Shown here: positions 17,209-46,119 of the stretch, piece by piece
How positions within the stretch are numbered: position 1 is the first letter of the stretch
Layout of the letters: every line of letters begins with the position of its first letter
Assembly: GCA_964291675.2 (NCBI GenBank)
Contig: OZ219866.1
Coordinates: forward strand, 768,001 to 832,000
Direction of reading: 5' to 3'
Length of the DNA stretch: 64,000 bases
From: Alphaproteobacteria bacterium
GTDB lineage: Bacteria > Pseudomonadota > Alphaproteobacteria > MPNO01
Translations under genes and position numbers: made by a program
Notes under the pieces: model-generated
What the model was told of the DNA's origin: nothing
The model's database searches: none
What the model saw: the letters and a program-made list of their open reading frames with translations, nothing else

Positions 17209-18321
17209 ATGGCCGCCAACAAGAAGCTGCTGATCCTGGCCGGGGACGGCATCGGCCCCGAGGTGATGGGCGAGGTGCGCCGGGTCATCGACTGGATGGA
17301 CCGGCGCCGCCATGTGAGCTTCGACGTTGCCGAGGCGCTGGTGGGCGGCGCGGCGATCGACGAAGAGGGCGGGCCGATCTCGGACGCCACGATGGACGCG
17401 GCGATGGGCGCCGATGCGGTGCTGCTGGGCGCCTGCGGCGGCCCCAGATGGGCCGATGTCGCCTTCGAGATCCGCCCCGAGGCGGGGCTCTTGCGCCTGC
17501 GCAAGGACCTGGAGCTGTTCGCCAATCTGCGCCCGGCGCTGGTCTTCGACGCGCTGGCCGAGGCGTCGACGCTGAAGACCGAGCTGGTCGCGGGGCTCGA
17601 CATCCTGATCGTCCGCGAGCTCACTGGCGGGGTCTATTTCGGCGAGCCGCGCGGCATCGAGACCCTGGCGGGCGGCGAGCGCCGGGGCGTCAACACGCAG
17701 GTCTACACCACCTCCGAGATCGTCCGCGTCGCCCGCGTCGCCTTCGACCTCGCGCGCAAGCGCGGCAACCGGGTGTGCTCGGTCGAGAAGGCGAACGTGA
17801 TGGAGAGCGGCCTGCTGTGGCGCGAGGAGGTCACCCGGCTGCACCGGGGCGAATACGCCGATGTCGAGCTGTCGCACATGCTGGCCGACAATTGCGGCAT
17901 GCAGCTGGTGCGCGCGCCCAAGCAGTTCGACGTGATCGTCACCGACAATCTGTTCGGCGACATGCTGTCGGATGTCGCATCGATGCTCACCGGCTCGCTC
18001 GGCATGCTGCCCTCGGCCTCGCTGGGACCTGCGGATTCTTCGGGGCGGCGGCGGGCGCTGTATGAGCCGATCCACGGCTCGGCGCCCGACATCGCCGGCG
18101 AGAACAAGGCCAACCCGCTCGCCACCCTACTCAGCTTCGCGATGATGCTGCGCTACTCCTTCGACATGGAGGAGGACGCGCTGCTGGTCGAGCGGGCGGT
18201 CGAGCGGGCGCTCGCCCGGGGGCTGCGCACCGGCGACATCATGCAGCCCGGCATGACCGCGGTCTCCACCGCCGGGATGGGCGAGGCGGTCACCGAGGCG
18301 CTGGACGCGATGGCGGCTTAG
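17209..18321 (+). CDS. leuB: 3-isopropylmalate dehydrogenase
   Basis: [45 protein letters not shown]. Confidence 0.98.
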
Positions 18322-18401
18322 GCCCTTCCGACGCGCCGGAGTCGCCATGGCGCAGACAGGAACGATGCCGTCCGTCTTTCGTTCCTTCGGCGAAAGTCCG
18401 G

Positions 18402-19163
18402 CTAATGACCGCCGCGTACGAATCCGTGGGGATCAATATTCGTATAGCAGTTGAATTTCCGTATTCCTGCCTCAGAGCGGACATGGAATTCTCCATTCTT
18501 GGAATGCCTCACGTCAAAATGAAAACCGTCGGGAAGTCGAAAGGTGAATTTGCGGCGGCGCCATTCTGGAAGACCATGCGAGCCATGGTGAGCGCCGTGA
18601 CAAAAGATCAGTTCCAGGCGGTCGTGCCAACAGCCGCGGCTTCTATGCCGGTCACGGAAACGCCTTATGGTCTGCTCGACCGCATGGAGGTCGTCCCTTT
18701 CCCGGTTGACGTTGCGTGCCCGGGACCAAGCGTCCTTTACCGATGGCTCGGCTTCGAAAACGGTTTCCGGCAGGAGCAGCGGGGACCCGATCCCGGGCCG
18801 TACCCTGGCGCGCCATTCTTCCTCGAATTCCATGCACGCGTTGAAGGCTTCGAAAAACACTTCTTGGCCGAATTTGCGTGACAACTCGCGCGGCAGCCAT
18901 GTCGCGCGGTAACACCGGCGAGCCAATTCTCCGAAATTGGGACGCTCGCTTTCGCGATCGTGGGCGAGAAGAAGATGCACGCCCGCGTCGGGGGCGCAAT
19001 CGGCCTCCTTCATGACTCGAGACCATATGCCCGAGAGATCTGCGCGTCCGTGATCGCGACTCGGTATTGATTTGATCGTCCATCCCGCGCGGGCGGGGCG
19101 ACTTTTCGCGCGCCGATGGGTCCCAAGTGGGATGCCGGCGACGATCACGTGCGGATCGGTCAT
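18402..19163 (-). CDS. Hypothetical protein (253 aa), His-rich C-terminal domain, unknown family
   Basis: ATG 19163 overlaps the stop of the upstream gene (ATGA); HGAHHGSHG, DGFHFDV and YTNIDPHG segments; lower GC than flanks. Confidence 0.75.
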   Translation of the reverse strand: MTDPHVIVAGIPLGTHRRAKSRPARAGWTIKSIPSRDHGRADLSGIWSRVMKEADCAPDAGVHLLLAHDRESERPNFGELARRCYRATWLPRELSRKFGQEVFFEAFNACMEFEEEWRARVRPGIGSPLLLPETVFEAEPSVKDAWSRARNVNRERDDLHAVEQTIRRFRDRHRSRGCWHDRLELIFCHGAHHGSHGLPEWRRRKFTFRLPDGFHFDVRHSKNGEFHVRSEAGIRKFNCYTNIDPHGFVRGGH

Positions 19164-19951
19164 CCCCCTTTGCGCTGGGACAACAGCGCCTCGATCGCCC
19201 GAAATGGTATGCGAAGGTCGCGAATTTCTTCGGCAGTCAGATAGGGAACAAGGCGGGCCAGGGTTTGATGAGGCGAATCCGCCGTTCCGGCGCGCCGAAA
19301 CCAGGCCGTGCGTACGGTCAAGCCGTGGCCTTTCGCCCATTCCCTTACGCGGGCAGCCACCGTTCGGCTTTGCCATGCGGTCCATTTGGGGAAGACGCCT
19401 CGGCTCGACGCTTCCCGTCGAAATTCCGAAAGTGGATTGGATGATCCGTTCAGCGCGTCAATCAACGGCCCTTGGACATCGGACGGCAGCGTGGCGACAA
19501 AGTTCCGGCGGTCTTCGACCAGGCCACTCAGGGTCACGCTCTCCACCTCGATGGAGGCGCCTTCCGCCTCATTCTCCGGCACGAACCTGTCGCTATTCGG
19601 CAAGTAAACGAAAGGAAGGGGCGAGACCCGTGTGAACGCCTCATACACGTCCTTTCGCAAACCTTGGTGGCCGAGTTCGGCCCCAATTCGCGGCGCATCG
19701 TTCGGAATGCGCGCGCCCTGTATGCCGACCAGGACATCGCTGCCCGGGCGAGCCCGCATGTCGATGTCGTCGACTCGGCGCACCAGCGTCGAAAAGGAAT
19801 CGGGCGACTCGGCGACATGTCTAGCCACATCGAATCCTCGGTCGTTACCGAGCGCGACCATTCGCTGGCGCAGTTTCGCGCCGGGGACCATTTTCGAATC
19901 GGCGTCAAGGCTGCGGAGCGCCTCCATTACAAGGCTATCCCAGTCGTCCAT
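19160..19951 (-). CDS. Hypothetical protein (263 aa), unknown family
   Basis: GGAGG RBS at 19958-19962, globular-looking composition, lower GC than flanks, coupled to the next gene. Confidence 0.8.
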   Translation of the reverse strand: MDDWDSLVMEALRSLDADSKMVPGAKLRQRMVALGNDRGFDVARHVAESPDSFSTLVRRVDDIDMRARPGSDVLVGIQGARIPNDAPRIGAELGHQGLRKDVYEAFTRVSPLPFVYLPNSDRFVPENEAEGASIEVESVTLSGLVEDRRNFVATLPSDVQGPLIDALNGSSNPLSEFRREASSRGVFPKWTAWQSRTVAARVREWAKGHGLTVRTAWFRRAGTADSPHQTLARLVPYLTAEEIRDLRIPFRAIEALLSQRKGG

Positions 19952-19978
19952 GGCGCGCCTCCGGGACTTGGCGAATAC

Positions 19979-20015
19979 AAAAACGGGCTCGATGGATTGG
20001 CCATCGTGCCCGTTT
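19979..20015 (-). terminator. Intrinsic terminator inside the leader of the two-gene cassette
   Basis: Minus strand AAACGGGCACGATGG-CCAAT-CCATCGAGCCCGTTT with the T-run continuing TTGTATT; lies 28 nt before ATG 19951. Confidence 0.7.
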
Positions 20016-20160
20016 GGTCAATGATTCTGCTTGCCTATGCGGCTGCTGGGACAACAAGGGTCCGCTCGAAAGTTAGGCCCGGCAAGCCAGCCTAACAGAG
20101 GGGACCGTCCGGACAGCCCTGGATTCCCCCGCACGAGTGAGTCGATTAAAGAGGAATCGC
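19979..20160 (-). ncRNA. Putative structured non-coding/leader RNA (~180 nt)
   Basis: Bounded by the promoter and terminator; stems at 20122-20129/20151-20158, 20072-20078/20090-20096 and 20057-20064/20110-20120. Confidence 0.5.
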
Positions 20161-20164
20161 GAAA

Positions 20165-20193
20165 AACCTATGAACCGGTTACCAAATTGTCAA
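20165..20193 (-). promoter_or_regulatory. sigma70 promoter with palindrome in the spacer
   Basis: TTGACA (20193-20188), 17 nt, TAGGTT (20170-20165); AACCGGTT palindrome at 20173-20180. Confidence 0.7.
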
Positions 20194-20239
20194 GAGACTG
20201 GACCCAAGGGGTGACGTGTGCGCTTCGTAGCCCGCCGGT

Positions 20240-21544
20240 TCAATTCTTCGTCATCTGCTGCGGCAGGTAGGTGGCGATCTCGGGGAAGACGACCAGCAGC
20301 ACCACGCCGATCTGCAACAGGATGAAGAAGGGGAACGCCGCGCGGGCGATCTGCAGGATGTTGCGCCCGGTAAGCCCCTGCAGGACGAACAGGTTGAACC
20401 CGACCGGCGGGGTGACCTGCGACATCTCGACCACCAGCACCAGATAGATGCCGAACCATATCGGGTCGATCCCCGCTTCCTGGATCATCGGCAGGATGAT
20501 CGAGGTGGTGAGCAGCACCACCGAGATGCCGTCGAGGAAGCAGCCGAGAACGATGAAGAAGACCGTCAGCGCCGCGATCAGCCCGTAGCGGCCGAGCTCC
20601 ATCTCGCCGATCCACTGCGCCAGCGAGCGCGGGATCCCGGTGAAGCCCATGGCGATGGTCAGGAACGACGCGCCGACGAAGATGAAGCTGATCATGCAGG
20701 TGGTGCGCGTCGCCCCCATCAGGCTGTCGGCAAGCACCTGCCGGTTGAGCCCGCCGGTGCCCCAGGCCAGCGCGAGCGAGCCGAGCACGCCGACCACGGC
20801 GGCCTCGACCGGGGTGGCGATGCCGAGATAGATCGAGCCCAGCACGGCGACGATCAGCAGGATGGTGGGCAGCAGGCGGCGGGACTCGTAGATCTTGCGC
20901 CAGATGGTGAACCGCTCGTCGCTCTTCGGGATGCGGGACGGGTTGACCAGCGCCCACAGCATGATGAAGCCCATGAACAGCGCCATCAGCATGACGCCCG
21001 GCAGAATGCCGGCGATGAACAGCCGGGCGATCGAGAGCTCCGCGGCGACGCCATAGACGATCAGGATGATCGACGGCGGGATCAGGAAGCCGAGCGTGCC
21101 GGAGCCCGCCAGCGTCCCGATCGACATGCGCTCGTCATAGCCGCGCCCGTGCAGCTCGGGGATCGACATGCGCCCGATGGTCACCGCCGTCGCCGCGGAG
21201 GACCCGGAAATCGCGGCGAAGATGCCGCAGGCGACCACGTTGACGTGCAACAGCCGGCCGGGCAGTCGCGTCACCCAGGGCGCGATGCCGCGGAACATGT
21301 CCTCCGACAGCCGCGTGCGGAACAGGATCTCCCCCATCCAGACGAACAGCGGCAGCGCGATCAGCGAGAACGGGGTGGTCGAGCCCCAGGTCGTGGTCGC
21401 CAGCACCGAGCCCGCCGGCGCGGTGGTGAACGTCATCATCGCGAACACCGAGACGCCCACCAGCGACAGCGCCACCCAGAGCCCCGAGCCGAGCAGCAGC
21501 AGGAGGACGAAGGTCAGCACCAGCGCGATCGAGAGGATGTCCAT
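20240..21544 (-). CDS. dctM: TRAP transporter large permease
   Basis: LIALPLFVWMGEIL, FAAISGSS.AT, GTLGFLIPPSI, TPPVGFNLFV. Confidence 0.95.
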   Translation of the reverse strand: MDILSIALVLTFVLLLLLGSGLWVALSLVGVSVFAMMTFTTAPAGSVLATTTWGSTTPFSLIALPLFVWMGEILFRTRLSEDMFRGIAPWVTRLPGRLLHVNVVACGIFAAISGSSAATAVTIGRMSIPELHGRGYDERMSIGTLAGSGTLGFLIPPSIILIVYGVAAELSIARLFIAGILPGVMLMALFMGFIMLWALVNPSRIPKSDERFTIWRKIYESRRLLPTILLIVAVLGSIYLGIATPVEAAVVGVLGSLALAWGTGGLNRQVLADSLMGATRTTCMISFIFVGASFLTIAMGFTGIPRSLAQWIGEMELGRYGLIAALTVFFIVLGCFLDGISVVLLTTSIILPMIQEAGIDPIWFGIYLVLVVEMSQVTPPVGFNLFVLQGLTGRNILQIARAAFPFFILLQIGVVLLVVFPEIATYLPQQMTKN

Positions 21545-46043: not shown

Positions 46044-46119
46044 TGGTGCCGCCTGTAGGACTCGAACCTACGACCCCCGCATTACGAATGCGATGCTCTA
46101 CCAGCTGAGCTAAGGCGGC
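46044..46119 (-). tRNA. tRNA-Thr (anticodon CGT)
   Basis: GCCGCCTTAGCTCAGCTGGTAGAGCATCGCATT-CGT-AATGCGGGGGTCGTAGGTTCGAGTCCTACAGGCGGCACCA; 76-nt cloverleaf with encoded CCA. Confidence 0.97.

Follow-up and report, generated by a model that had tools for sequence, protein, structure and literature searches.

To our knowledge, only a few toxin or defense modules are controlled by an RNA, i.e., the ToxIN-type loci, AbiF, and those with retron and DRT RNAs, and several of these became tools. The antitoxin RNAs of the type III systems are tandem repeats that the toxin cuts into units of ~36 nucleotides (nt). The AbiE systems have no dedicated RNA; there, the gene of a winged-helix protein that is both antitoxin and regulator is followed by the gene of an enzyme toxin. 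For AbiF, the excerpted account describes a SigA promoter, an RNA of ~100 to 130 nt, a Rho-independent terminator and then the toxin gene, with no second promoter; the RNA, RCd22, was first called "riboswitch-like" and was then shown to bind and neutralize the toxin in trans as well as in cis (PMC12373285, in excerpt). The locus described here lies in a 64,000-nt stretch of the genome of an alphaproteobacterium (contig OZ219866.1, positions 768,001 to 832,000), the whole of which is referred to below as the window. It is a cassette of one dedicated RNA and two translationally coupled proteins, A and B, and it is a self-contained and horizontally mobile module. By analogy, we read it, tentatively and with somewhat less than even confidence, as an RNA-protein module of the toxin-antitoxin kind, with a layout like those of AbiF/RCd22 and ToxIN, a single nonrepeated RNA, and two proteins.

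Organization of the cassette

All parts of the cassette lie on the minus strand. A sigma-70-type promoter (20165..20193), with a -35 element TTGACA at 20193-20188, a 17-nt spacer, and a -10 element TAGGTT at 20170-20165, ends 6 nt ahead of the first base of a structured RNA core of 132 nt (20027..20158), which was delimited by a covariance model, R1, and by covariation. Next come an intrinsic-terminator-like hairpin with a U-rich run (19975..20015), built from two 15-nt arms with one A.A mismatch, and a GGAGG ribosome-binding site (19958..19962), six bases ahead of the ATG of open reading frame (ORF) A. ORF A (19160..19951) encodes 263 amino acids with a LOTUS/OST-HTH-like fold predicted at the N terminus by Foldseek, and ORF B (18402..19163) encodes 253 amino acids, its start overlapping the stop of ORF A by ATGA. 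The initial annotation of this DNA had described the same series, i.e., TTGACA-N17-TAGGTT, ~180 nt of hairpin-rich RNA, terminator, GGAGG, and the 263- and 253-residue ORFs joined by ATGA, and every element of it is present on that strand.

The noncoding stretch of ~184 nt, from ~20158 to 19975, has no credible reading frame; its fold, made up of several hairpins, has an energy of -75.9 kcal/mol (z = -3.36), a stability equaled by 0 of 200 shuffled sequences; the minimum-free-energy fold recovers the nested helices of the RNA core. Tandem Repeats Finder, at a minimum score of 30, found no tandem repeats in 18300-20300, and a repeat search of the cassette gave scattered two-copy families only, of 12 to 24 nt. 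The initial annotation had likened the order of promoter, RNA, terminator, and genes to that of RNA-antitoxin loci while remarking that repeats were lacking and that there were two genes rather than one; the likeness and both reservations hold.

A generic scan of the window for promoters and terminators listed neither the cassette promoter, because its -10 element fits only 3 of 6 consensus letters, nor the hairpin, because its stem carries the A.A mismatch. The window alone is therefore insufficient proof of either, and the proof rests on the comparison across loci given below. In the interval from the hairpin to ORF A, the same scan of the window detected nothing that resembles a promoter, so A and B would be transcribed only by read-through. 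As for the start of B, a longer frame of 327 codons (18402-19385) reflects merely an upstream in-frame ATG; the start at the ATGA overlap is preferred because full-length homologs (251 to 257 amino acids) align from residue 1.

A conserved structured RNA upstream of A and B

Every close locus has in common a noncoding element within 400 nt ahead of A. A structure was derived from 14 sequences, and R1, which was built on it, finds 16 copies at 92 to 139 bits, in the window and in loci L001-L011, L014, L016, L017, and L020. All 16 matches lie directly upstream of A-B or their remnants, and the loci span several phyla. The RNA core consists of a P1 hairpin with an inner stem, P1a, followed by two stems, P2a and P2b, which enclose P4 and then P3; the P3 loop pairs with the 3' tail (CUUGCC with GGCAAG) to form a pseudoknot. 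Stretches predicted to be unpaired are also highly conserved.

The five helices and the pseudoknot are backed by covariation. Standard pairs fill 94.3% of 619 alignment cells, compared to 28 to 49% when the 3' partner is slid by 1 to 3 columns, statistics that were taken on a model-fitted alignment and are biased toward the model's own structure. Changes on both sides of a pair are seen in 16 of 39 pairs, versus 2 to 6 in the slid controls, and in 500 shuffles the covariation score never rose to the one observed. Of the seven pairs in the pseudoknot, two covary. The initial annotation had suggested looking for a conserved, covarying RNA ahead of homologous gene pairs, and such an RNA is what the 16 R1 loci carry. 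In Rfam 15 there was no match at E values up to 1 in 18000-20600. With no match in Rfam, the RNA is a new family.

The promoter and the hairpin recur with the RNA. Hexamers resembling -35 and -10 elements, 16 to 18 nt apart and ending 6 to 7 nt before the first base of the RNA, are present in all 16 loci; at least 9 of the 12 consensus letters are matched in 12 of the 16, compared to 0.3% of shuffled upstream regions. A strong hairpin likewise follows the RNA core in 16 of 16 loci. Folding predicted it in 14, and in L009 and L014, where the folded piece was cut short, it is visible in the sequence. It is the presence of the hairpin that is conserved and not its sequence, and the quality of the U-run varies. 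The linker between core and hairpin is 2 to 20 nt long (in the 14 loci for which the hairpin was correctly picked) and is not conserved in sequence. These features point to one promoter firing at the first base of the RNA and to a strong hairpin after it, and the joint recurrence of promoter, covarying RNA, hairpin, and gene pair is far beyond chance.

In the 11 genomes searched, the RNA occurs in exactly one copy per genome and always at the cassette. A second, weak R1 match in L006 (3660-3796, 17.8 bits), which lies inside a Rieske-type gene, is treated as spurious. A small peptide encoded by the RNA was also considered and rejected: every frame is interrupted by alignment gaps of 1 to 2 nt, and the base changes compensate for one another. 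The RNA and the end of A have in common one exact direct repeat of 12 nt, at 20045-20056 (in the 3' strands of P2) and at 19174-19185 (in the final codons of A, just ahead of the start of B); chance is the probable cause, because in the other 13 loci the two have nothing longer than 6- to 7-mers in common.

Proteins A and B

Neither protein has a match beyond noise in Pfam, NCBIfam, PADLOC, or PHROGs, which bears out the statement of the initial annotation that it could place neither in a family. PADLOC searches with individual members of the A and B families gave only single, inconsistent weak matches, and sequence profiles of the PDB gave no match for A or B. In a collection of 5.8 billion proteins we found 84 clusters homologous to A and 52 near clusters for B, and every name given to them is "hypothetical." A predicted complex of A and B scored 0.00, which gives no verdict.

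The alignment of the A family has 25 invariant columns. The AlphaFold2 model of A (mean predicted local distance difference test [pLDDT] score, 82.4) comprises a winged helix at about residues 1 to 77, then a small region of beta structure, and a C-terminal half made of helices. With Foldseek, the N terminus matches the LOTUS domain of Oskar (5a49) with a probability of 0.99, a TM-score of 0.66 on the target, and a root mean square deviation of 2.7, and it also matches TDRD7, TDRD5, and two small bacterial structures solved by nuclear magnetic resonance (2kzv and 2kpm). The whole-chain E values are weak (0.2 or worse), and winged helices of the ORC/Cdc6 type rank lower in the list. The model thus suggests that the N terminus of A is LOTUS/OST-HTH-like, a fold of the RNA-binding type, and this is the one hint of the ribonucleoprotein that the initial annotation had proposed. 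The Foldseek comparison that the initial annotation had proposed for both proteins was in this way informative for A; for B it returned no solved fold. In the ESM Atlas, A falls in unnamed clusters only, one of which has OST-HTH on 11% of its members. A weak match to UPF0158, for which we know of no function, was seen at about residues 150 to 214 in 26 of 62 A members, the best scoring 21.0 bits against a cutoff of 21.1.

For LOTUS domains, binding to G-rich and G-quadruplex RNA and occurrence in prokaryotes have been reported (PMC7498356, in excerpt). A true OST-HTH gene (PF12872) is found elsewhere in the genome in 10 of 11 genomes of the same genus (L052-L061), in frames of 265 to 451 amino acids, and a search for the OST-HTH family in genome G000 (93.7% complete) found none.

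For B, a profile search found 247 relatives among 1.84 billion representative proteins; the 150 matches listed of these are 88 to 304 amino acids long and include no fusions. Ten positions are invariant over 71 diverse members (G10, R86, E114, W117, P132, H193, H215, V218, N242, and G247), and H63, D181, K205, and D217 are nearly so, a residue pattern that looks like that of an enzyme. In the AlphaFold2 model of B (pLDDT, 93.0; predicted TM-score, 0.88), the N-terminal part is small and alpha/beta, the middle is helical, and the C-terminal part is rich in beta structure. The model resembles no solved fold: the best Foldseek match in the PDB has an E value of 0.017 at a TM-score of 0.2. Foldseek found no match to B among viral models either, and the ESM Atlas gave nothing usable.

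Insertion site and divergence

The insert measures 1,918 bp (18322..20239, minus strand) and lies between the stop codon of leuB (18319-18321, plus strand) and that of a TRAP dctM-like gene (20240-20242, minus strand), so that the cassette is downstream of the dctM-like gene and converges on leuB. It contains the promoter, the RNA, the hairpin, A, B, and ~80 nt after B. These limits follow from genomes of the same genus in which the leuB/dctM junction is empty, as found by a DNA search with 17300-21300 of the window. The matches to leuB and dctM abut in G015, G016, G017, G019, G021, and G024, overlap by 8 nt in G018, and are 11 nt apart in G014. In G023 the leuB match is followed, 5 nt later, by an 82-nt match to the end of dctM only, and for G022 there is only the leuB half among the matches listed. 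B was not found in 11 other species of the genus, and among the other 77 genomes of the order there is only one weak, broken match, while G000 has B. At the same junction, G020 (L037, C1:1630200-1632000) has an unrelated insert of ~1.35 kb, which looks like a single long ORF of high GC content on the other strand; the place where the two stop codons converge may be a hot spot for insertions.

The cassette differs from its surroundings in composition, with a GC content of 0.55 to 0.63 over 18350-20300 against 0.67 to 0.74 in the flanks, a drop that the initial annotation had also seen. Third-position GC is 0.63 to 0.77 in the cassette genes and mostly 0.7 to 0.95, often 0.85 to 0.95, in the neighbors. 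On the evidence of this lower third-position GC, of the empty same-genus sites, and of the architecture shared across phyla, the cassette is horizontally acquired, as had been supposed at the outset.

One locus, L017, has the cassette at the same leuB/dctM site as the window. The flanking genes of the two are 94.3% and 94.6% identical, with synonymous divergences (dS) of 0.14 and 0.17, compared to 78.8% identity for A and 79.9% for B, with dS of 0.55 and 0.53. Since the dS of the cassette genes exceeds that of the flanks, the cassette alleles predate the split of the hosts, which points to exchange of alleles or to repeated acquisition at the site. The ratio of nonsynonymous to synonymous divergence is 0.31 for A and for B, which places both genes under purifying selection. 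Identity between the two loci is 93.2% in the RNA core and 62 to 75% in the promoter flank, the linker with the hairpin, and the stretch after B; by this comparison, the RNA core is the most constrained part of the cassette.

Past the stop of ORF B by 17 nt is a hairpin with a 7-bp stem and no U-run (18359..18385, minus strand), possibly the 3' end of the operon; L017 has a similar one. Elsewhere in the window, a tRNA gene (46047-46119, minus strand) is the sole Rfam match above the gathering score.

Other lineages have the cassette at different sites, as a lone insert among unrelated housekeeping genes. Its neighbors include genes for an AAA ATPase with a VWA CoxE-like protein, a fumarase with an MFS transporter, AcrB, a Rieske protein, an ABC permease, ThrRS, MacB-type permeases, a nitronate monooxygenase, a DUF480 protein, AlkZ, and a luciferase-like monooxygenase. 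No recognizable defense or mobility genes, including integrases, were found with Pfam among 20 flanking genes, and PADLOC on 10 flanking proteins gave two marginal matches, both to one protein (E of ~5e-4). AAA ATPase and VWA CoxE-like genes often share one operon. In L001 (3894-8237), from Pseudomonadales, the cassette sits between such a pair, and the downstream gene starts ~11 nt after the stop of B.

Distribution and distant relatives

When 185,579 species were scanned, each represented by one genome, 16 cassette loci came up. Their record titles assign them to Pseudomonadales and other Gammaproteobacteria, Alphaproteobacteria, Spirochaetia, Bryobacterales, Tepidiformaceae, Binatia, and Terriglobia, and the architecture is nearly identical in Alpha- and Gammaproteobacteria, Spirochaetia, Bryobacterales, and Tepidiformaceae. 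Distribution of the cassette is thus rare and patchy. Full-length A stands beside B in 12 of the 16 genome loci, and both genes are present in all 10 metagenome loci, two of which are cut by contig ends. In all of 18 loci the A-B junction falls between -4 and +12 nt, and 8 of them have a 4-nt overlap.

At the remaining 4 of these 16 loci the cassette is broken. L011 and L016 have retained promoter, RNA, and hairpin but have A and B deleted or frameshifted, whereas only a fragment of B is left in L013. In L015, which begins at a contig end, the C-terminal end of an IS110-like transposase (2-328) takes the place of the RNA and the N terminus of A; A is reduced to an ORF of 172 amino acids, and B (259 amino acids) is open.

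More distant cassettes, with A and B 23 to 34% identical to those of the window, are represented by L012, L021/L022, L023, and L024-L026. Each has a promoter-like site, ~170 to 200 nt of noncoding sequence, and a canonical terminator before A. With its filters off, R1 gives 9.9 bits in L012 and 9.5 bits in L021, both matches being full length and at the expected place upstream of A, and it finds nothing at that place in L023 or L024. By RNAfold and by eye, L021 keeps P1, P2, P4, and P3, and its pseudoknot, of 7 bp, differs in sequence; a pseudoknot of 5 bp is kept in L024 and a weak one of 4 bp is seen in L023, while L012 gives no clear picture. The comparison therefore indicates that the architecture of the RNA persists while its sequence drifts along with the proteins, and such co-divergence is more in keeping with an interface between RNA and protein than with a metabolite pocket that stays fixed.

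No A and no RNA pattern were found on viral contigs, and no B was found in phage records. The initial annotation had raised a possible anti-phage role, and this part of it gains no support: no recognizable defense gene is among the neighbors scanned, PADLOC gives nothing consistent, and the cassette is not on the viral contigs or phage records searched. The sole plasmid match is an N-terminally truncated relic of B in a cultured strain, Cupriavidus sp. P-10 (pMTS3, NZ_AP025174.1:140600-141241). It is annotated as a "hypothetical protein," is 30 to 34% identical to distant B members, and has a faint trace of A upstream, and the locus looks like a decayed cassette.

Proposed function and alternatives

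If the cassette is a module of the toxin-antitoxin kind, most transcripts would stop at the hairpin, giving an RNA of ~180 nt in excess over the A-B message. This RNA would bind the LOTUS/OST-HTH-like domain of A, or B, or both, and its binding would keep B, the presumed toxic effector, inactive or underexpressed; loss of the RNA, or its displacement by stress or by an invader, would free B. A fuller version, which we regard as doubtful, is that the cassette represents a new three-part class in which the ~130-nt RNA is the antitoxin or sensor, the LOTUS-like protein A reads the RNA, and both gate the effector enzyme B, the whole serving as a toxin-antitoxin or abortive-infection system that spreads across phyla as a 1.9-kb unit.

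A number of observations weigh against a toxin-antitoxin role. The layout is that of a textbook riboswitch, and no defense genes were found near the cassette among the flanking genes scanned. Type III RNA antitoxins are tandem repeats processed by the toxin, and the cassette has no repeats; two proteins of ~260 amino acids are also large for a toxin-antitoxin pair. The LOTUS-like label of A comes solely from its fold: the OST-HTH profile PF12872 misses A and all 62 members of the A family at E values up to 1, and hhalign of A against OST-HTH domains of the same genus gave a probability of 3.2%, over 35 columns at residues 34 to 71, which is the expected region. For B, the toxin domain Ntox37 (PF15535) was considered and rejected, with matches in four of 71 B members at E values of 0.035 or worse and an hhalign probability of 3.4% against two natural domains. 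The signature of Ntox37 is given as "all-beta; E, [KR], Hx[DH]" (PMC3482391, in excerpt); K205 and H215-x-D217, within the beta-rich C-terminal part of B, look similar to it, a likeness that we treat as a lead only.

A cis-regulatory role for the RNA, as a riboswitch or as a leader, was absent from the initial annotation and fits the same layout. The RNA would in one case be a new riboswitch, in which a small molecule controls read-through of the hairpin into A-B and the two genes encode a ligand-related enzyme pair, e.g., for detoxification or salvage. We consider this unlikely; nonetheless, a riboswitch or an A-responsive leader is a serious rival. The order of promoter, structured RNA, terminator, ribosome-binding site, and genes is the classic one, the pseudoknot and highly conserved unpaired stretches are as in many aptamers, B is enzyme-like, and the RNA is found in cis only, in one copy per cassette. 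However, no antiterminator was detected: the terminator's 5' arm pairs with the 3' half of the RNA and the linker no better than shuffled arms do (mean z of +0.07 over 16 loci), in a crude duplex-energy test for which the hairpin was mis-picked in L001 and L008 and which does not reach other platform types. Neither the length nor the sequence of the linker that joins RNA and hairpin is constant, and the conserved junction sequences are lost in the distant cassettes (R1 scores of 9.9 bits at most), whereas the pocket is usually preserved among aptamers for one ligand. The cassette is furthermore a selfish-like and often broken insert, and A has a fold of the RNA-binding type. Four points thus favor an RNA-protein module over a metabolite riboswitch, none of them decisive: the co-divergence, the missing antiterminator signal, the fold of A, and the selfish, often lost nature of the insert. 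The second cis-acting possibility is a leader that is bound by the winged helix of A and tunes the termination or translation of A-B with no role in trans, an RNA-level analog of the DNA-level autoregulation by AbiEi. The LOTUS/OST-HTH-like domain of A and the co-divergence of RNA and proteins both agree with it, as do the single RNA per cassette and the position of A before B with overlapping stop and start, an arrangement found in antitoxin-toxin pairs. We nevertheless think it quite unlikely, since a leader used for feedback only rarely needs 130 nt with five helices and a pseudoknot, or 93% identity where the genes reach 79%, and since the antiterminator was not found.

Finally, the RNA could be the working part of some other ribonucleoprotein, as a substrate, cofactor, scaffold, or guide for B, in RNA modification, RNA-templated chemistry, or the spread of the cassette. 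Such a role would suit the new fold of B with its invariant catalytic-type residues, the reach of the cassette into many phyla with no recognizable mobility gene, and the alleles at the leuB/dctM site that are older than their flanks (dS of 0.53 to 0.55 against 0.14 to 0.17). It is improbable on several counts. A guide-like match of the RNA to the flanking DNA was not seen, as in none of 13 loci did the longest shared words exceed those of shuffles, and there is no conserved antisense match between the RNA and the start region of B. The variable loops of the RNA are only ~6 nt long, no terminal repeats were found at the cassette, and none of the other loci compared has a conserved element downstream of B.

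Comparison with known systems

In the literature searched, neither the RNA nor the proteins are described; supplementary lists, which were outside the search, may hold candidate motifs. The cassette brings together three new families, i.e., a covarying RNA absent from Rfam 15 and two proteins absent from Pfam, one of which, B, is predicted with high confidence and yet is unmatched among solved structures. If the toxin-antitoxin-like reading is true, an RNA of a single unit paired with a LOTUS-like protein would widen the set of RNA-controlled modules, and bacterial LOTUS/OST-HTH-like domains would gain a concrete RNA partner. If instead the RNA is a riboswitch, it would be a new orphan class on a mobile enzyme pair. 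The whole unit of 1.9 kb has its own promoter, which makes the question directly testable.

Among described systems, terminating riboswitches share with the cassette a promoter, a covarying and pseudoknotted 5'-leader RNA, a terminator hairpin, and then genes. The cassette differs in having no antiterminator signal, in that its RNA co-diverges with the proteins, and in that its genes are a mobile pair, one member of which has a predicted fold of the RNA-binding type. AbiE resembles it in the winged-helix first gene, the enzyme-like second gene of similar size, and the overlap of a few bases; the cassette, however, has an RNA, and its proteins match neither the AbiEi nor the AbiEii family.

The likeness to the type III systems ToxIN, CptIN, and TenpIN lies in an RNA gene upstream of a protein gene, with one promoter and a terminator between the two, in a pseudoknotted RNA, and in small, mobile, and patchily distributed modules. 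In contrast to these systems, the cassette has a single fold of 132 nt with no repeats, no match to the ToxN/AbiQ, CptN, or TenpN families, and the extra protein A. With AbiF/RCd22, as excerpted (PMC12373285), the cassette shares a housekeeping-sigma promoter, an RNA, a terminator, and a protein gene reached by read-through. It differs in having no Abi_2/HEPN protein and no match to RF03085, in not being on a prophage or phage record, and in having one larger pseudoknotted RNA and two proteins where the excerpt gives AbiF two short abiF motifs and one protein. Insofar as the analogy and the excerpted account allow, the logic of AbiF/RCd22 appears nearer to that of the cassette than does the logic of ToxIN, and the cassette would act like an RNA-controlled toxin-antitoxin module while standing outside every known family of such modules.

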